The notes below the pieces were generated by a model. That model saw only the letters and a list, made by a program, of their open reading frames with translations, was not told the origin of the DNA and ran no database searches. From a virus (Duplodnaviria > Heunggongvirae > Uroviricota > Caudoviricetes), in IMG/VR virus record IMGVR_UViG_2585427734_000004: DNA of 22,017 nucleotides. The stretch is one strand, 5' to 3'. Position numbers and translations under genes: made by a program. Shown here piece by piece: positions 4,006-19,397 of this stretch (the first letter of the stretch is position 1; every line of letters starts with the position of its first letter).

Positions 4006-4232
4006 TGGCTGATGCAATGGATCTCGTACAGCAGCGCGTTGAAGAAGAACGCCAGCGCCATATCCGTGCTGCCCGTGCCAAAACACCGGGCGTGTCTCGC
4101 GTGCTTTGCATTGAATGTGATGCGCCAATTCCGCCAGCACGCCGCCGCGCCATTCCAGGAGTGCAGCTTTGCATTACCTGTCAGGAAATCGCAGAGCTGA
4201 AAGGCAAACATTACGACGGAGGTGCTGTATGA
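4005..4232 (+). CDS. TraR/DksA-family C4 zinc-finger protein
   Basis: C-terminal CIECDAPIP...x17...CITCQ pair of CxxC motifs; typical P2 orf82-like position just before gene A. Confidence 0.75.
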
Positions 4233-4531
4233 CAGGGGCTGTGCGTATCCATCAATTAAAAATTGCACCTAAGTATTTCAACGCTGTGGTTGCAGGTCAA
4301 AAGACGGCTGAACTTCGTAAAGACGATCGTGGCTATAAAGTTGGTGATGTTCTTTCTCTTTGCGAATGGAAGCATGGCGTATTTACGGGTAGGGAATGGG
4401 CCGCGGTTATCTCTCATGTGCTTCCGGTTAATGACGTGATGGCAGTTTCAGAACAATGGGTGATGCTATCAATTCGCTCATTAACCCCATTAGAAGCTTT
4501 AGGATATGTTATTGCAGGAGGTGCTGTATGA
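4229..4531 (+). CDS. DUF3850 / ASCH-like (PUA-fold) protein
   Basis: N-terminus [33 protein letters not shown] resembles the DUF3850 signature; ATG overlaps the upstream stop (ATGA). Confidence 0.6.
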
Positions 4532-8516: not shown

Positions 8517-8540
8517 GCCCGCCAGAACTGTCGGGCTTTT
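8517..8540 (+). terminator. Weak intrinsic terminator-like hairpin
   Basis: gcccg-N10-cgggc followed by TTTT; short stem, so low confidence. Confidence 0.3.
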
Positions 8541-8585
8541 GCGTAGATCATGCAGGTGCATGAAAACCACTACATAAAGCGGGCA

Positions 8586-8605
8586 GGCGTGGCGGGGATA
8601 CGAGC
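8586..8605. other. Possible cos-site remnant
   Basis: GGCGTGGCGGGGA matches, from memory, the first 13 nt of the 186/P2 19-nt cohesive end; the next 6 nt diverge. Not verified against a reference. Confidence 0.3.
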
Positions 8606-8612
8606 GCGCGCC

Positions 8613-8641
8613 TTGCCTTATATCTATTTGTTCATTAAAAT
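8613..8641 (+). promoter_or_regulatory. Putative sigma70 promoter for the retron ncRNA/RT operon
   Basis: TTGCCT (8613-8618), 17-bp spacer, TAAAAT (8636-8641). Confidence 0.3.
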
Positions 8642-8647
8642 CATTAT

Positions 8648-8850
8648 GCTCTTTAGTGTAGGAACATTGGTTCCAGCCGGGTGATTAGCCAGGCTTAAAT
8701 TTATTGTCCGGTTTAGGGTTGCGAAAGACACAGATTTCTCCTTCGCATCCCTGCCCGGGGCAGATATGCGAAGGAGAAATCTGTGTCTTTCGCTGTCTTT
8801 AGTGAAGAGTCAAAGCGCTATGTAAAGTTGCATAGCGCTTTGGTTTTAAG
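8648..8850 (+). ncRNA. Candidate retron msr-msd non-coding RNA
   Basis: Structured non-coding region immediately 5' of the RT: small hairpin ggaac-attg-gttcc (8661-8674), the 73-nt perfect palindrome (8721-8793) and a 12-bp-stem hairpin (8811-8842). Boundaries and the a1/a2 repeats are not resolved. Confidence 0.5.
8721..8793. repeat. Perfect 28-bp inverted repeat with nested ctgccc/gggcag palindrome (73-nt hairpin)
   Basis: 8721-8748 gcgaaagacacagatttctccttcgcat is the exact reverse complement of 8766-8793; read directly from the sequence. Confidence 0.9.
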
Positions 8851-8859
8851 AGGGGTTAT

Positions 8860-9795
8860 ATGCAACTAACTTCTAAAATTATCAGTAAGTTTAATTATAA
8901 TAGATTAGCTTTCCAATTACTTTTAAATGAGGCCCCCAAAAAATATAAAGTTTATTATATTCCTAAACGTGGCGCAGGTTTTCGGGTGATAGCTCAGCCG
9001 ACAAAGGAACTAAAAAACGTACAGAGATTTATAGTATCTTTGCTACAGCCAAAGCTGCCTGTTCATCATAAGGCAATGGCATATGAATATAAAAAAAGTA
9101 TTAAAGATAATGCATTGTTGCATAAAGATAATAATTATATTCTTAAAATGGATTTTCAGAACTTCTTTAATAAAATTAAACCTGATATATTTTTCTCGAA
9201 ACTTGAGAACACAGGGCTGAAATTGGATTCATTTGATGAGAACACCCTACGTAATTTGCTTTTTTGGCGTCCGGGAAAAAAGAGAAGTACAACGTTGATA
9301 TTAAGTGTAGGGGCGCCAAGCTCACCATTTATTAGTAATTTTGTTATGTATGACTTTGACAAGAGTCTTGATGATTGGTGCCGTAACAATGGTATCACTT
9401 ATTCAAGGTATGCAGATGATATAACTTTTTCAACTAATATTAAGGATATATTGTGCAGGGTTCCTAAGGTGGTAAAAAAAATGTTGTCGCTCCATGTTCC
9501 CGGTCTATCAATCAATGAATCTAAAACAATTTTTACATCGATGGCTCATAATCGGCACGTGACTGGTGTAACACTTACACCTCAGGGCAATTTATCAATT
9601 GGTCGCGATCGTAAAAGGATGCTGTTTGCAAAGATTCATAAATATTCTTTGGGACTCTTATCTTCCGAAGAAATAAATAAAACCAAAGGGATGATTGCGT
9701 TTGCAAATTATTTGGAGGGTGATTTTTTATTAAGGTTACAAAAAAAATATGGTTGTGAGTTAATAACTAAGTTCCTGATGGAAGGAAACAAATAA
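8860..9795 (+). CDS. Retron-type reverse transcriptase
   Basis: 311 aa; YADD catalytic motif (SRYADDITFS), upstream FQNFFNKI, RT-like GAPSSPFISN; AAGAGGGG RBS; AT-rich codon usage. Confidence 0.85.
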   Translation: MQLTSKIISKFNYNRLAFQLLLNEAPKKYKVYYIPKRGAGFRVIAQPTKELKNVQRFIVSLLQPKLPVHHKAMAYEYKKSIKDNALLHKDNNYILKMDFQNFFNKIKPDIFFSKLENTGLKLDSFDENTLRNLLFWRPGKKRSTTLILSVGAPSSPFISNFVMYDFDKSLDDWCRNNGITYSRYADDITFSTNIKDILCRVPKVVKKMLSLHVPGLSINESKTIFTSMAHNRHVTGVTLTPQGNLSIGRDRKRMLFAKIHKYSLGLLSSEEINKTKGMIAFANYLEGDFLLRLQKKYGCELITKFLMEGNK

Positions 9796-11429
9796 TGATA
9801 AATAAAATGAATTTAGAGACTTGCTATGTTGATTTTTTAGAGTTGGAATCACATGTGATAAACGAGGATTATTTGAAGGAGTCTGTTGAGCTTCAAAAGC
9901 TAATATCTACTTTAAATGAGAGTAAGTTTCATTTAAATAAAATAGGTATACATGATTTTAAACGGATAAGAGAACTACAGATTTCCTTAGAAGATGATTT
10001 GACTGTTTTTGTCGGGGATAACGGATTCGGTAAAAGCACTATTTTGGATGCAATAGCAATTGTTTTGAGTTGGTTGAGATCAAATATTGAAAAGGAGAGT
10101 AAGCCTGGTACTTATATTAAAAGCCATGAAGTTAATAACTCTGTTGATGTTGAGTATGCATCAATTGATGCAAATATAAAACTTAAGGACTTTAATACCA
10201 GTATTTTGATTACTAAAGCGAAAGAGGGGGCATATTATTCTAGAAATAATGAATTGTTGGAGGTAAAAAAACTTGCAAGTATTTATAGACTTGTGAATAA
10301 ATATGTTGATAATGCAAGCTTGCCTTTGATGGCATATTATTCTATTGCGCGTTCTTATATAGGCGGTGGGGTTGATAGGAAAAGAAAAAATGCTAAAACT
10401 AAAACTGTATGGTCAAAATTCGATGTGTATGATGAAATCGAGTTTGACAGAAATGATTTTACCGATTTTTTTCAATGGCTTGTATTTCTTCATAACAGAG
10501 CTTCACAAGAGAAATTGAGTGAGTCACAAACGACAATCAATGCGTTATTTTCAGATATTCAAAGTTTGAAAGCAACATTAACTCAACTATCTGCGATTGA
10601 TAATATTGATTCAACAGTTATAAAAGGTTTAGAGCTTTCGCTTAAAGAAAAATTGAACTACATGAAATCTCTGCAATCAGGAGAACATAAGTTTAATAAT
10701 GCAGTATCACTTTATGATAGTGTTATAAATACCATTCTAAAGTTCTTGCCTGAATTTCAGTGGATTAAGCTTGTTTATGGTGATGATGATTATAAGATTA
10801 TCCTTAAAAAAGGAGAGGTTGAATTAGATGTTCAACAGTTGTCTCAAGGTGAGAAAACTATATTTACTTTAGTTGGTGATTTGGCTCGACGTTTAATTTT
10901 ACTTAATCCAAATTTATCTAATCCTCTATTGGGATATGGGATTGTTTTAATTGATGAAATTGATTTGCATTTGCATCCGCAATGGCAACAGACAATTATT
11001 GAGCGTTTGACATCTACATTCCCAAATGTTCAATTTGTAGTTACTACCCATAGCCCACAGGTTTTATCCACTGTTAGCTCTCGTTCAGTGCGTATTCTAC
11101 AGGAAGTGGAAGTAGATGGTGTTAATGATTTGATAGTGTCTCACCCCGACTATCAAATAAAAGGTGTTAGTAATCAGGATGCACTTTTATATGGAATGAG
11201 AACTGATCCTATACCCTCTACTAAAGAAAATGGTTGGCTTGAAGAATATAAAAAATTGGTTGAGCTTAATCGTTATAGCAGTGACGAGGCTCTTTTGTTA
11301 AGAGAAAAAGTTATTAAACATTTCGGATTAGACCATCCTTTAGTTCAAGAGTGTGATGATCTTATATCTGTTTTGGAGTTCAAAAATAAGATAAATCAGC
11401 ACTTTTCTGGAAGTAAGGATGTAAAATGA
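9795..11429 (+). CDS. ABC-type ATPase (Septu PtuA-like) retron effector component
   Basis: Walker A GDNGFGKST, signature LSQGEK, Walker B VLIDEIDLHLHP, H-loop VVTTHSP, with a long helical insert; start overlaps the RT stop. Confidence 0.8.
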   Translation: MINKMNLETCYVDFLELESHVINEDYLKESVELQKLISTLNESKFHLNKIGIHDFKRIRELQISLEDDLTVFVGDNGFGKSTILDAIAIVLSWLRSNIEKESKPGTYIKSHEVNNSVDVEYASIDANIKLKDFNTSILITKAKEGAYYSRNNELLEVKKLASIYRLVNKYVDNASLPLMAYYSIARSYIGGGVDRKRKNAKTKTVWSKFDVYDEIEFDRNDFTDFFQWLVFLHNRASQEKLSESQTTINALFSDIQSLKATLTQLSAIDNIDSTVIKGLELSLKEKLNYMKSLQSGEHKFNNAVSLYDSVINTILKFLPEFQWIKLVYGDDDYKIILKKGEVELDVQQLSQGEKTIFTLVGDLARRLILLNPNLSNPLLGYGIVLIDEIDLHLHPQWQQTIIERLTSTFPNVQFVVTTHSPQVLSTVSSRSVRILQEVEVDGVNDLIVSHPDYQIKGVSNQDALLYGMRTDPIPSTKENGWLEEYKKLVELNRYSSDEALLLREKVIKHFGLDHPLVQECDDLISVLEFKNKINQHFSGSKDVK

Positions 11430-12109
11430 AATATCTATCTAGGCAAATGCCAGGGCCTTCCGTTCTTAATAAATTTGACTATAGGAGGGATGATTGGAAT
11501 TCCCTATCATCAAATGATAAAAAAGAAATATGGGAAGAAATAATAAAAATGCAAGGTAAATTATGTGCTTATTGCGAGAAAAAAATAGAGCATCATAAAA
11601 GTGGTGACAAAAATAAAGTTGAGAGGCATATTGAGCATTTTTACAGGAAAAGTTATTACAAAAATTTAACTTTCGAGTGGTCTAATTTGTTTGGCTCATG
11701 TGGTGAGCCGCAAAGGTGTGGGTTTTATAAGGATAAGCAAAAATATAACGATGATGATTTAATTAAAGCTGATAGACAAAATCCAGATGTTTTTTTCCAT
11801 TTTTTGGAAAATGGTGATGTTCATATTAGAGAAGGCTTGAATGAGAAAGAACACAAAATGGCAGAGGTTACGTTAAGAGTATTTAACTTAAACCCGTCCT
11901 CAGGAGGAGTCAAGGCGGAAAGAAGACGTGCAATAGAATTAAGCATGACATTAATAAAGGAACTGGTCGGATGTGCATCTCAGCTTATTGAATCAGGATG
12001 TGAAATTGAAGATGTTAGATCTATGGTCTTTGATGAGTTTAAAAAGAATGTAAAAGATAGATGCTTTACCACTGCGATAAAGCATGTTTTTGAGAATAGA
12101 ATGCCTTAA
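11426..12109 (+). CDS. HNH endonuclease (PtuB-like) retron effector component
   Basis: CAYCEKK...HIEHF HNH-like Cys/His motifs; ATGA overlap with the ATPase stop. Confidence 0.75.
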   Translation: MKYLSRQMPGPSVLNKFDYRRDDWNSLSSNDKKEIWEEIIKMQGKLCAYCEKKIEHHKSGDKNKVERHIEHFYRKSYYKNLTFEWSNLFGSCGEPQRCGFYKDKQKYNDDDLIKADRQNPDVFFHFLENGDVHIREGLNEKEHKMAEVTLRVFNLNPSSGGVKAERRRAIELSMTLIKELVGCASQLIESGCEIEDVRSMVFDEFKKNVKDRCFTTAIKHVFENRMP

Positions 12110-12190
12110 AGGTTAGAGGGATGTATATATAATTAATCTATATTATATTCTGAGAAATTGATAATATGCATCCCTATCCACTGATTAAAT

Positions 12191-12652
12191 TCATGGATTT
12201 TTTTTTTGTAGAGGTACTAATTCATTTGTCACAAAAACCTTACTAGCTTTCTCCACATCCCCAAACCCCCCAACATTATTCGGCATAATCCCCATCATTT
12301 GCGGCGGCACACGGTGTGCCGCCATCATGTCGTCCCGGCTCACGTTCTTGATATTCAGAAATTCATCCTTCGCTGCAACTTCTGACAACGGGATGATCTG
12401 AAGCCCGTCCTTTTTGCCGTTAGGCGAGTACATAAACAAGTTACGGAAGTTGCCCGGTCCTTTGGCGCTTTTCATCGCGTTGCGGAGGTTGTTCACATCC
12501 TCCTGGTTCTGCGCGGCGTCAGTCATATACATGATGAAGCCTGCATGACTGCCGTTAATGTAATACTTGCGGCGGAACAGCGTGGCGGACTCGTTGAGCA
12601 GGGCTGACGGAATGGCAGAAAGATAAGTTTTTTCTAACGGAGCACGGCTCAT
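12191..12652 (-). pseudogene. Capsid portal (gpQ-like) C-terminal fragment; terminase gene absent
   Basis: Minus-strand ORF whose 5' end overlaps the O start codon, leaving no P-O intergenic promoter; no Walker A, so not a terminase N-terminus. The Q assignment is by position and elimination. Confidence 0.35.
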
Positions 12653-13484
12653 GACAGTGAAAGCAAAGCGTTTTCGCATCGGGGTGGAAGGTGCCACCAC
12701 CGACGGACGCGAAATCCAGCGTGAATGGCTGGAACAGATGGCAGCCAGCTACAACCCGGCGGTGTACACCGCGCTGATTAACCTTGAGCACATCAAGTCT
12801 TATCTGCCGGACAGCACCTTTAACCGCTACGGCAAGGTGACGGCGCTGTTTGCTGAAGAAATCACGGAAGGTCCGCTGGCAGGCAAGATGGCATTGTATG
12901 CCGACGTTGAGCCAACGGAGTCCCTGGTGGAACTGGTGAAAAAAGGCCAGAAATTATTCACCTCTATGGAAGTCAGCCCGAAGTTCGCTGATACGGGCAA
13001 AGCCTCCCTGGTTGGCCTGGCCGCCACTGATGATCCCGCCAGTCTGGGTACGGAAATGCTGACATTCAGCGCCAGTGCAGCCCATACCCCGCTGGCAAAC
13101 CGCAAGCAGAATCCCGCCAATCTTTTTACCGCTGCAGAGGAAACGGTGATCGAACTGGAAGAAATCCAGGAGGACAAGCCGTCCCTGTTTGCCCGTGTCA
13201 CGGCGCTGTTTACCAAAAAAGAGCAGTCCGATGACGCCCGGTTCTCTGATGTGCATAAGGCCGTGGAGCTGGTCGCCACTGAGCAGCAGAACCTGAGCGC
13301 ACGCACCGAAAAATCCCTGTCTGAGCAGGAAGAACGCCTGTCTGAGCTGGAGACTGCTCTGCAGGAGCAGCAAACCGCCTTAAACGAACTGGTGAATAAG
13401 CTGAGTCATGAAGACAGCCGCCAGGACTACCGCCAGCGTGCAACAGGCGGTAACGCCCCCGCTGACACTCTGACCAATTGCTGA
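12651..13484 (+). CDS. O: Capsid scaffolding protein gpO
   Basis: N-terminus FRIGVEGATTDGREIQ...INLEH...SMEVSPKFADTGK...LVGLAATDDPASLGTE matches recalled P2 gpO (FRIGVEGDTCDGR...INLEH...LVGLAVTDDPASLGTE). Confidence 0.8.
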   Translation: MTVKAKRFRIGVEGATTDGREIQREWLEQMAASYNPAVYTALINLEHIKSYLPDSTFNRYGKVTALFAEEITEGPLAGKMALYADVEPTESLVELVKKGQKLFTSMEVSPKFADTGKASLVGLAATDDPASLGTEMLTFSASAAHTPLANRKQNPANLFTAAEETVIELEEIQEDKPSLFARVTALFTKKEQSDDARFSDVHKAVELVATEQQNLSARTEKSLSEQEERLSELETALQEQQTALNELVNKLSHEDSRQDYRQRATGGNAPADTLTNC

Positions 13485-13500
13485 TGGAGCACAAAACCTG

Positions 13501-13890
13501 ATGAAGAAGAATACCCGCTTTGCTTTTAACGCTTACCTGCAGCAACTGGCACGTCTGAACGGTGTGGCAGTTGAAGAACTGTCCAGCAAGTTCACTGTAG
13601 AGCCGTCTGTGCAGCAGACGCTGGAAGACCAGATCCAGCAGTCCGCCGCTTTCCTGACGCTGATTAACGTCACGCCAGTGCCTGAGCAGTCCGGTCAGCT
13701 GCTGGGGCTGGGTGTTGGCAGCACCATTGCCGGAACCACTGACACCACCGCGAAAGAGCGTGAACCTGTCGATCCGACGCTGATGGTCGATGTGGAATAC
13801 AAATGCGAACAGACCAACTTTGACACGGTGCTGACCTACGCGAAGCTGGACCTGTGGATCAGGCAACGCCGCGCACTAACGGTGATCTGA
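13501..13890 (+). pseudogene. N: Major capsid protein gpN, N-terminal ~120 aa only
   Basis: TRFAFNAYL...NGV...SKKFTVEPSV...LDLW matches the recalled P2 gpN N-terminus (TRFKFNAYL...KKFTVEPSV...LDLW), then diverges and stops; full gpN is ~357 aa. Confidence 0.6.
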
Positions 13891-13974
13891 ACGCGTTGCT
13901 GGATGAAACGGAGGCCGCCTGGGCGGTCTGTGCAGACAAAGTGGACATGATTATTGCGTGTCAGGAGCGAAACA

Positions 13975-14406
13975 GTGAACAAACCACAATCCCTGCGCCA
14001 CGCCCTCAATAAAGCAGTGCCTTATGTCCGCAATAACCCGGACAAACTGCATCTGTTTGTGGATAACGGTTCGCTGGTTGCCACGGGGGCCAGCTCCATG
14101 TCATGGGAGTACCGCTATACCCTGAACGTGGTGATTGAGGATTTCAGCGGCGACCAGAATCTGCTGATGGCCCCGGTTTTGCTGTGGCTGCGGGATAATC
14201 AGCCTGATGCCATCAATAACCCGGCGTTACGGGAAAAGTTATTCACCTTTGAGGTGGATATTCTGCGCAATGATGTCTGTGATATCAGCCTTAACCTGCA
14301 ACTGACGGAGCGTGTGCTGGTCAGCACTGATGGCAGTGTGTCGAGTGTTGAAGCTGTAGCGGAACCCGATGAACCTGAAGAAATGTGGACGGTGAAACGT
14401 GGCTGA
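13975..14406 (+). CDS. R: Tail completion protein gpR
   Basis: GTG 13975 with AGGAG RBS; KPQSLRHALNKAV...NPDKLHLFVDNGS...LWLRDNQPD resembles recalled P2 gpR (KPDSLRRALTDAV...NPDMLRIFVDNGS...AWLRENQPD). Confidence 0.7.
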   Translation: MNKPQSLRHALNKAVPYVRNNPDKLHLFVDNGSLVATGASSMSWEYRYTLNVVIEDFSGDQNLLMAPVLLWLRDNQPDAINNPALREKLFTFEVDILRNDVCDISLNLQLTERVLVSTDGSVSSVEAVAEPDEPEEMWTVKRG

Positions 14407-14845
14407 ATTGCAGAAGGTGGACGGCTGGTTGAGTGCCTTGCTGGCGAATCTGGAGCCAGCCGCAAGAAGCCGTATGATGCGCCAGCTGGCGCAAGAACTG
14501 CGCCGGACACAGCAGCAGAACATCAGGATGCAGCGCAATCCAGATGGCAGTAGTTATGAGCCGCGCAGAGTAACAGCACGCAGCAAAAAGGGGCGCATCA
14601 AACGTCAGATGTTTGCAAAGCTGCGCACCAAAAAATACCTGAAAACTGCCGCCAGCGCCGATTCTGCCAGCGTGCAGTTTGAAGGTAAGGTGCAGCGCAT
14701 TGCCCGCGTTCATCACTACGGCCTGCGTGATCGTGTTAGTCGTAAGGGGCCGGAGGTACGTTATGCTGAGCGGCGGCTATTGGGTTTCAACGATGAAGCT
14801 ACTCTTCAAATTAAGACAATTTTATCTAGTTACTTAATGGGGTGA
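14399..14845 (+). CDS. S: Tail completion / virion morphogenesis protein gpS
   Basis: GTG start overlapping the R stop; LEPAARSRMMRQLAQELRRTQQQNI...PDGS...GRIKRQMFAKLR...IARVHHYG fits the gpS virion-morphogenesis family pattern. The 3' end runs into AT-rich insert sequence. Confidence 0.7.
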   Translation: MAELQKVDGWLSALLANLEPAARSRMMRQLAQELRRTQQQNIRMQRNPDGSSYEPRRVTARSKKGRIKRQMFAKLRTKKYLKTAASADSASVQFEGKVQRIARVHHYGLRDRVSRKGPEVRYAERRLLGFNDEATLQIKTILSSYLMG

Positions 14846-14937
14846 AGATTCATGCTTTTGCTAGCTTCTACAAGGTTTTATGCTTCTAAACACTGTATGT
14901 TTAATTTGACATATAACTATTTGTACAAGCGGTGAGT

Positions 14938-16161
14938 ATGAAAAAGCAAGATGAGTCCCCCAAAGCTGATAAATCAAATTTAGATAAAAGTGAGTCTGAA
15001 CCACCAAAAGCGAACTCTATGGCAGATGCCATGGCCATAGCGGCAGAGGTTGCTACGACAGCAACGTCAGTTCAAACATCAACCTTTGCAATTATCGCGG
15101 ATTTTCTACGTTCAGGTGGTATAGAAAAACTAACTTCAAATGCTATCAAAAATTTAGAAATAAAAGTAAAGGGCCATTCTCAAGCGACAAGAACTACGGT
15201 ATTGAGGAACCTGAAGACCTCTTTCAAAGAGGAGAATTTAGTTCTTGTTTTAGGTGCTGGCATTTCTTTAGATTACAGCATACCAACATGGAGTGAATTA
15301 TTAAAGCGGCTATTGGCAAGAGCTTTGGATGATAAAAATGAAAATCAGAAAATGGTATCGGTTTTGTTTAATGAGGTTTTCGGTCCGAACGCACTCATAG
15401 CAGCCAGATATCTAAAACTACACTTTGATGGTATTAATACTCCCTTGGAAAAAGAAATTCAGCATGTTTTGTATGAATATTATCAGGAGGAAGAAAGCAG
15501 TACATTGAAAGCAATCAAGAAATTGTGCATATCGGCAGGCAAGTCACCAGGTCTAGATTCCGTTATTACATATAACTATGATGATATTTTGGAACAGACA
15601 TTAACTAGAGCTGATGTTGGTATAAAGTATAAGGTGATTTCAAAGACGGGACAGCATGCAAAAAATGATGAACTGCCGATCTACCATGTGCATGGCTATC
15701 TCCCATTGCAGGGGAAAGTTGAACTCGATGACACGCTAGTCCTTTCTGATGAAAGCTATCATAGGCAATACATGGATTTATACCATTGGAGCAATATGGT
15801 TCAGTTGAATAAATTCAAAGATGGTAATTGCCTGTTTGTTGGTCATTCCTTTACAGATCCAAACCTCAGAAGGTTGATGGATACAGCCAAAAAACTTAGA
15901 GGGAATGATTCTAAACCTCATTATTTAATTAAGTGTAGACATTCGAAAGAAGATGTGATTGCTAATATTCAAAGAATTGTTAGTGACTCAAGAAATGGAT
16001 TTGATAATAAACTGAATATTAATGAGGATGCAATCGCGACCTCTCTTTTACAGACAGTGCATACTTTTGAAGAAATCGATGCTAATTCATTTGGCGTGAA
16101 TGTTATTTGGATCGACTCTTACGATGAGATTGCACCAATACTTAATGATCTAACACAATAA
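14938..16161 (+). CDS. SIR2-family (SIR2_2-like) protein, candidate NAD+-depleting defence effector
   Basis: LVLVLGAGISLDYSIPTWSELL (GAGxS), VITYNYDDILEQ (TxNYD) and PIYHVHGYL (HxHG) motifs; low-complexity K/E/S/A/T-rich N-terminal ~90 aa; AT-rich gene in a GC-rich tail cluster. Start could also be GTG 14932 or ATG 15019. Confidence 0.75.
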   Translation: MKKQDESPKADKSNLDKSESEPPKANSMADAMAIAAEVATTATSVQTSTFAIIADFLRSGGIEKLTSNAIKNLEIKVKGHSQATRTTVLRNLKTSFKEENLVLVLGAGISLDYSIPTWSELLKRLLARALDDKNENQKMVSVLFNEVFGPNALIAARYLKLHFDGINTPLEKEIQHVLYEYYQEEESSTLKAIKKLCISAGKSPGLDSVITYNYDDILEQTLTRADVGIKYKVISKTGQHAKNDELPIYHVHGYLPLQGKVELDDTLVLSDESYHRQYMDLYHWSNMVQLNKFKDGNCLFVGHSFTDPNLRRLMDTAKKLRGNDSKPHYLIKCRHSKEDVIANIQRIVSDSRNGFDNKLNINEDAIATSLLQTVHTFEEIDANSFGVNVIWIDSYDEIAPILNDLTQ

Positions 16162-16238: not shown

Positions 16239-16454
16239 ATGAACGCTCAACTAACAGAAATCATGCGCCTTATCACCAATCTGATCCGCACTGGTGTAGT
16301 CACCGAAGTGGACCGGGAAAACTGGCTTTGTCGGGTGAAAACGGGCGACCTTGAAACCAACTGGATTAACTGGCTGACACTGCGCGCGGGCAAATCGCGC
16401 ACCTGGTGGAAAACTCACCATCGACTACGACTACACGCCAGTGCCGCCACTTGA
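16239..16454 (+). pseudogene. V: Baseplate spike gpV, N-terminal fragment
   Basis: [42 protein letters not shown] matches the recalled P2 gpV N-terminus (IRTGIIVETD...CRVQTG...WLQWLTHRAGRSRTWW), then diverges after ~60 aa and stops. Confidence 0.55.
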
Positions 16455-17420: not shown

Positions 17421-17756
17421 GTGGCAGACATCGCCACCATTTTTCACTGGCCGCCATCCGTTACTGACGTTATGCCGCTGGAGCAGATGGCAGAACAGGG
17501 GAAAGCATGGCCTCTGATTGAAGGCAGCGGCACGATTTACGGCATGTATGTGATTGAGGGACTGAATCAGACTAAAACGGAGTTTTTCCGCGACGGTATG
17601 CCGCGCCGGATTGAGTTCACCCTGTCGCTCAAACGGGTGGATGAATCCCTGTCCGATATGTTCGGTGATCTCAGTGCGCAACTGAATAATCTGCAGGAAA
17701 CGGCAACATCTGCTTTAAGCGATATCAGTAAAACGGTGGGAGGGCTGCTGTCGTGA
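17421..17756 (+). pseudogene. E' extension continuing into a tail-protein U-like C-terminal segment; tape measure gene T absent
   Basis: -1 frame relative to E with no stop from 17361 to 17756; ends in a GTGA overlap with the D start. Only ~130 codons lie between the E slippery site and D, where P2 has T (~815 aa) and U. Confidence 0.45.
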
Positions 17757-19184: not shown

Positions 19185-19397
19185 TCATTAAAAAACAGTG
19201 CTTCTAACATCATGATTTTAAAAGGCATAAATTTCAGGCAACAAAAAACCCATCAACCTTGAACCGAAATGGCGGGGGTGATGGGCTCCACAAAATGGGG
19301 ACATCAAAGAAAAGCAGTGGCACTAATTAAGACTGATGCCCTGCGGAAAAGTTCTGCGGTTGTGCAAAAAAATTTCATTTTCAGGGCAACTTCAGTT

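Follow-up and report, generated by a model that had tools for sequence, protein, structure and literature searches.

A portal pseudogene, very probably left by a microhomology-associated deletion, in a decayed P2-like prophage of Escherichia coli

The minus-strand open reading frame that runs across the start of the capsid scaffold/protease gene gpO, in the 22,017-nt stretch of viral DNA analysed here (hereafter the window), is almost certainly a non-functional portal pseudogene of a P2-like prophage, left behind by a 2420-bp microhomology deletion. The arrangement is ordinary prophage decay of a known kind, with neither a new gene nor a new regulatory layout. Three further deletions occur in the same element, and the four together have cost the prophage its ability to package DNA, to build capsids or tails and to lyse its host.

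The window derives from an E. coli draft assembly (GCA_000713775.1), in which a 267-kb contig (JOSQ01000083.1) carries a decayed P2-like prophage adjoining ybjL, ybjM and grxA. Comparisons were made by megablast against 5426 complete E. coli genomes, the GTDB species-representative genomes were queried with the exact 42-nt junction sequence (GACGGAATGGCAGAAAGATAAGTTTTTTCTAACGGAGCACGG), and the window was scanned for domains with Pfam, NCBIfam and PADLOC. The prophages of E. coli SC475 (NZ_LR778148.1) and strain 98208 (NZ_CP173533.1) served as intact references. Both sit, like that of the window, at the ybjL site, share its gene order and have its retron cassette, separated by 23 bp from the stop codon of the portal gene, and near the feature under study their identity to the window is 99.8–100%. 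They differ from it in keeping the 2420 bp, the other ~13.5 kb of late genes, and a T9 homopolymer near the end of the portal gene. In both references the order is ptuB, 23 bp, the portal gene (342 aa) and the terminase ATPase gene (588 aa), the latter two on the minus strand, a 142-bp intergenic region and gpO, and BLAST alignment finds the window collinear with these intact prophages except for four gaps. The features around the remnant are as follows, with positions given in the window.

8860–9795: retron reverse transcriptase (RT_I-A)
9795–11429: PtuA ATPase
11426–12109, plus strand: ptuB, encoding the HNH effector in a type I-A retron system (Ec78-type), converging on the portal gene
12133–12626, minus strand: portal remnant (gpQ homologue), codons 180–342 of the intact 342-codon gene
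12191–12700, minus strand: the open reading frame under study, 169 aa with a GTG start, 153 aa with the ATG start at 12652–12650
12627–12650, plus strand: residual gpO leader, 24 nt, with a Shine–Dalgarno sequence (GGAG) at 12639–12642
12651–13484, plus strand: gpO capsid scaffold/protease gene, an intact 277-codon open reading frame
13501–13890, plus strand: truncated P2-type major capsid gene N′, its first 119 codons within a 129-aa open reading frame
14932–16161, plus strand: stand-alone SIR2_2-domain gene, 409 aa, low GC
19240–19318, minus strand: RybB sRNA gene (Rfam RF00110, 100 bits)

The identity of the fragment is clear from its homology. Residues 26–167 of the open reading frame are 100% identical (142 aa) to residues 180–321 of the intact 342-aa portal protein of 98208 and SC475, and the fragment aligns to residues 178–319 of P2 gpQ at 63% identity (E = 2e-66). 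Against the TIGR01540 (portal_PBSX) profile it scores 204.7 bits (E = 2e-60), covering positions 153–304 of 320 where the intact relative covers 1–316, and against Pfam PF04860 (Phage_portal) it reaches 34.6 bits, below the gathering cut-off of 39.1, as compared with 61.5 for the intact protein. Over the portal remnant the window differs from 98208 and SC475 by zero substitutions and one extra T. The original prediction, made from the letters alone, had proposed alignment to both gpQ and gpP as the means of settling the matter: BLASTP of the fragment against P2 gpP gives no meaningful similarity (best E = 0.036, 23% identity, gapped), and no terminase Pfam family matches the fragment, whereas the intact relative's gpP matches Terminase_6N, Terminase_6C and Terminase_5. 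A terminase remnant was rejected in the light of this lack of similarity to gpP. A sequence search of the PDB and the PADLOC scan each returned no match to the fragment.

The same prediction had named an intact small gene family as the outcome that would overturn it. The fragment is identical to the C-terminal half of an intact portal, its exact 153-aa product is recorded on one contig only, and an exact look-up of the 169-aa GTG-start product finds none on record. The junction itself is absent from all 5426 complete E. coli genomes and, as the exact 42 nt, from the GTDB species representatives. We rejected an independent small gene family on the strength of the single contig with the exact product and of the absence of the junction from the 5426 complete E. 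coli genomes.

The left side of the breakpoint is defined by four complete E. coli genomes (of the 5426 searched by megablast) that hold ptuB together with a full portal gene: they match window positions 11900–12626 at 99.9% identity, and homology ends abruptly at 12626. The right side is defined by the O genes of phages and prophages, which match the window from 12624 onward. The segment missing between the two is the interval 13462–15881 of the retrieved SC475 segment, with TAA on both sides, and its flanks are 99.8–100% identical to SC475; in particular, positions 12624–13857, which hold gpO, differ from SC475 by 3 substitutions in 1234 bp with no indel. With it went portal codons 1–179, all 588 codons of the terminase ATPase gene and ~115 bp of the 142-bp P–O intergenic region. 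It had been noted that only a ~150–170-aa fragment remains in place of Q plus P, and alignment to the intact P2-like prophages, the comparison that had been suggested, bears this out as 2420 bp missing, namely the N-terminal half of the portal and the whole gene for the 588-aa gpP. We suggest that the route was one illegitimate, RecA-independent, microhomology-mediated deletion; it joined portal codon ~180 to a point 24–27 nt upstream of the gpO start and cost the element the N-terminal half of the portal, the whole gpP gene and, with its Ogr-type activator site, the late promoter region that P and O share.

The apparent 5′ end of the open reading frame is a product of the junction. The CATG at 12650–12653, described in the original prediction as common to the minus-strand frame and O, is present in the sequence, where it joins the O ATG (starting at 12651) to an antisense ATG. 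The description of a portal-like fragment overlapping the gpO start holds only for residues 26–167, which are portal; the overlapping part (12627–12700, residues 1–25) reads the opposite strand of the O leader and of O codons 1–17. By chance the portal frame is open across the junction into antisense O, which creates an apparent start: a 25-codon open frame such as that beyond the junction occurs in 38% of 25-codon stretches on this strand, and intact relatives already have, in their O leader, the CAT that forms part of the CATG. Since the CAT is native and the open frame is at chance level, the CATG overlap is a by-product, and a designed divergent overlapping start was rejected on the same two grounds.

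The 3′ end of the frame is likewise displaced, and the following elements lie between ptuB and the body of the portal remnant.

12117–12128 and 12164–12175: inverted repeat AGGGATGTATAT / ATATGCATCCCT, 12-nt arms, 11/12 complementary, 35-nt loop
12176–12207, plus strand: small hairpin of 8 base pairs and one bulge, then the T10 run
12198–12207: run of ten T (T10; A10 when read in the portal sense), where every intact relative has T9

The extra T is evident from the alignment of 727 query bases to 726 record bases in the four genomes; it shifts the frame after ...PLQKK, so that the last 21 portal residues are replaced by NP-stop. The intact portal goes on past PLQKK with IHEFNQWIGMHIINFSEYNID, which aligns to the P2 gpQ tail (RIREINGWLGQEVIRFKNYSLD), and positions 12133–12190 in the intact gene encode the conserved portal tail KIHEFNQWIGMHIINFSEYNID, with the true stop at 12133–12135. 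The T10 may be either a slippage mutation or a homopolymer sequencing error in the draft assembly. As a second lesion it accounts for what had been read as an 82-bp AT-rich spacer between the HNH gene and the fragment. The length and composition of that spacer stand (81–82 bp from the ptuB stop to that of the open reading frame, 26% GC), but it is mostly frameshifted portal tail: given the frameshift it consists of ~58 bp of displaced portal coding sequence plus the true gap, 23 bp from the ptuB stop (12107–12109) to that of the portal. The last ~20 portal codons (12133–12200) are thus written in ~26% GC DNA, while the protein is conserved with P2 gpQ. Homology to the portal genes of prophages with other cargo stops 8–20 nt before the portal stop (12143–12155), which places the cargo/core boundary essentially at the portal stop codon.

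The 7-bp inverted repeat reported in this stretch (agggatg/catccct) is indeed present and extends to the 12-nt arms given above, with the true portal stop lying between them. In shuffles of the 82-bp stretch a perfect 7-bp repeat of this sort arises in 36% of cases and is not significant, whereas a 12-nt repeat with one mismatch arises in 1.65%, and the RNA fold of the region on the plus strand has z = -3.7. The intact prophages have the identical repeat, in an AT-rich stretch that is identical throughout, and the repeat was rejected as a deletion or recombination site for this reason and for its distance of ~450 bp from the junction. The neighbouring hairpin and T10 plausibly form a weak intrinsic terminator of the RT-ptuA-ptuB operon inside the 3′ end of the portal gene; a consensus scan did not pick up the hairpin at 12176–12207. 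A terminator-like hairpin for the minus-strand P-Q operon lies within ptuB (12061–12085, minus strand), and it seems that each of the two convergent operons has its terminator within the 3′ coding end of the other.

Loss of the divergent late-promoter region, which had been suspected from the overlapping starts, appears directly in the alignment to intact relatives. In P2 the annotation between P and O comprises the P start site, one shared activator site and the O start, and O transcription begins 40 nt before the ATG. The SC475 activator site (TGT-N12-ACA) lies at 15810–15827 of the retrieved segment, and its O start, predicted from the P2 spacing at ~15874, falls within the deleted interval 13462–15881, so that only 24–27 nt of O leader is left in the window. 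A TGT-N12-ACA site is absent from 12000–12800, and a sigma-70-like site from 11800–13000, while no Shine–Dalgarno sequence precedes either candidate start (GTG or ATG) of the fragment. The gpO gene is structurally intact but without its promoter, and read-through from the plus-strand retron operon could transcribe it. Normally gpQ follows P in the P-Q operon and is transcribed from the P late promoter; in the window neither P nor the P/O promoter region is left.

A functional portal is a dodecamer and needs the full-length protein (~340 aa, profile positions 1–320). Here residues 1–179 are deleted and residues 322–342 frameshifted away, and the fragment cannot form a portal. It resembles P2 gpQ in homology and in its position and orientation relative to gpO and the cos-proximal cargo locus, and differs from it in lacking the first 179 codons, start codon, promoter and last 21 residues. 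We call it a pseudogene for its truncation relative to an intact orthologue, with mapped breakpoints, and for the further lesions in the same element. It is presumably silent and does nothing, because it has no promoter and no ribosome-binding site and half of the protein is missing.

The four deletions, listed here by their junctions in the window, together remove ~16 kb, and the overlaps at their junctions are 3–6 bp.

12624–12626: deletion 1, 2420 bp, TAA microhomology
13855–13857: deletion 2, 3236 bp, TGG microhomology
16408–16412: deletion 3, 6983 bp, ~5 bp (BLAST overlap)
17478–17480: deletion 4, 3336 bp, CTG microhomology

Deletion 2 removed capsid, terminase small-subunit and lysis genes (the rest of N, M, L, X, the holin and lysozyme genes and most of lysB); deletion 3 the genes from baseplate to sheath (most of V, W, J, I, the tail fibre genes and most of the sheath gene); and deletion 4 the tape measure gene and part of U. 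Two fusion frames resulted, N′-lysB′ (129 aa) and E-U′ (112 aa). Where late-gene segments survive, 3 substitutions in 1234 bp and 6 in 2558 bp, without indels, set them apart from SC475, and the remaining late genes (O, R, S, tube, D and ogr) carry no further inactivating mutations, which fits very recent decay and is also compatible with some retained use. The deletions grounded the prophage and left its cargo, the retron Ec78-type RT-PtuA-PtuB cassette and the SIR2 gene, intact.

It is possible, and we suggest it tentatively, that the deletions were selectively kept because a grounded prophage would hold the retron and SIR2 genes in the chromosome as a non-inducible island of defence. All four deletions strike morphogenesis, packaging or lysis genes, and the retron cassette and SIR2 gene show no indels and only ~0.2% substitutions against SC475. 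Late genes make up most of the prophage, however, and random deletions would mostly strike them anyway; four events in one lineage make statistics impossible; and the junction is found in none of the complete E. coli genomes searched, which gives no sign of spread. Such selection, doubtful as we hold it to be, would be compatible with the reading of the fragment as a scar and would differ from it in evolutionary cause only; any selective reason for the retention of the defence genes is something that we infer.

It is very improbable that the junction is an artefact of the draft assembly, with Q-P-O intact in the strain itself. In favour of an artefact, the sequence comes from a draft contig, the junction was not found in complete genomes or species representatives, and many E. 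coli hold several P2-like prophages (at a median of 2 places per genome), which can confuse assemblers. Yet the two sides share 3 bp only, far below any assembler overlap, the four separate junctions bear the same microhomology signature in perfectly collinear order and orientation, and the 267-kb contig has normal chromosomal flanks and is recorded for two samples; an assembly chimera was rejected as unlikely given junction overlaps of 3–6 bp. We consider it just as hard to credit that the scar is not inert, in that read-through of the retron operon past the weak terminator drives gpO and makes an RNA antisense to the portal remnant; either product could then impair capsid assembly of superinfecting P2-like phages or P4-like satellites, which would add a decoy layer to the grounded defence island. 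Least credible of all is an expressed, functional truncated portal, dominant-negative against superinfecting P2-like phages or a partner of the retron, for although the frame is open for 153–169 codons with an in-frame ATG, adjoins the defence operon and has zero substitutions in its portal part, the region has no promoter-like site and the native P promoter is deleted, neither candidate start has a Shine–Dalgarno sequence, the first 25 residues come from antisense O, the frameshift has removed the conserved C-terminal tail, PADLOC gives no match, the exact product is on one contig only, and recency explains the zero substitutions, the flanks being equally unchanged.

The gpA–gpQ cos-proximal region of P2-like phages is a described defence hotspot, retrons included (PMC9122126), and there is a published account of defective P2-like elements whose core genes are pseudogenised and whose defence genes are conserved (PMC13586616). 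The present element resembles those of both reports in having lost core mobility or morphogenesis genes while its gpA–gpQ cargo is intact, and differs in nothing essential, save that here the breakpoints are exactly mapped. A search for the P2 cos pattern (GGCGAGGCGGGGAAAGCAC) with up to 3 mismatches found none in the window or in the retrieved 98208 segment. By eye, a cos-like sequence (GGCGTGGCGGGGATACGAG) at 8586–8604, upstream of the retron, matches P2 cosL (GGCGAGGCGGGGAAAGCAC) at 14 of 19 positions; such a site would put the whole retron cassette at the left end of the packaged genome, with cos on one side and the stop codon of the portal gene on the other, unlike the old/tin cargo of P2, which lies on the other side of cos. 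Positions 8532–9170 have zero differences from the intact SC475 prophage. The presumed retron msr-msd region (8640–8850) holds a long, perfect-looking hairpin (inverted repeat 8721–8793) just upstream of the reverse transcriptase gene, and Rfam reports no family at gathering score at 8640–8850.

Downstream of N′ come gpR and gpS, then the SIR2_2-domain gene and further tail genes. The SIR2_2 protein has weak PADLOC matches to the SIR2 domains of LmuA and ThsA, and its gene, between gpS and gpV as in SC475, occupies the position of the nonessential orf30 of P2, which may be a third cargo or defence slot of P2-like phages. SC475 and a few other E. coli prophages have this gene in intact form; strain 98208 lacks it. 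At the ogr end the prophage adjoins the RybB gene, near ybjL, in an attachment region common to 98208 and SC475. The early region (4232–4517 and 1200–2200) is mosaic relative to both intact relatives, with an extra gene for a ~100-aa DUF3850/ASCH-type protein between the TraR-like and Dam genes and a divergent CI/immunity segment.

For annotation, the open reading frame is best recorded as a portal pseudogene and gpO as promoterless. More broadly, the element provides a well-resolved example of prophage decay via short-microhomology deletions, and illustrates the published pattern in which packaging, lysis and tail genes are lost while cos-proximal defence cargo stays intact. Since the element can no longer form particles, the retron and SIR2 genes of this strain have ceased to be phage-borne.
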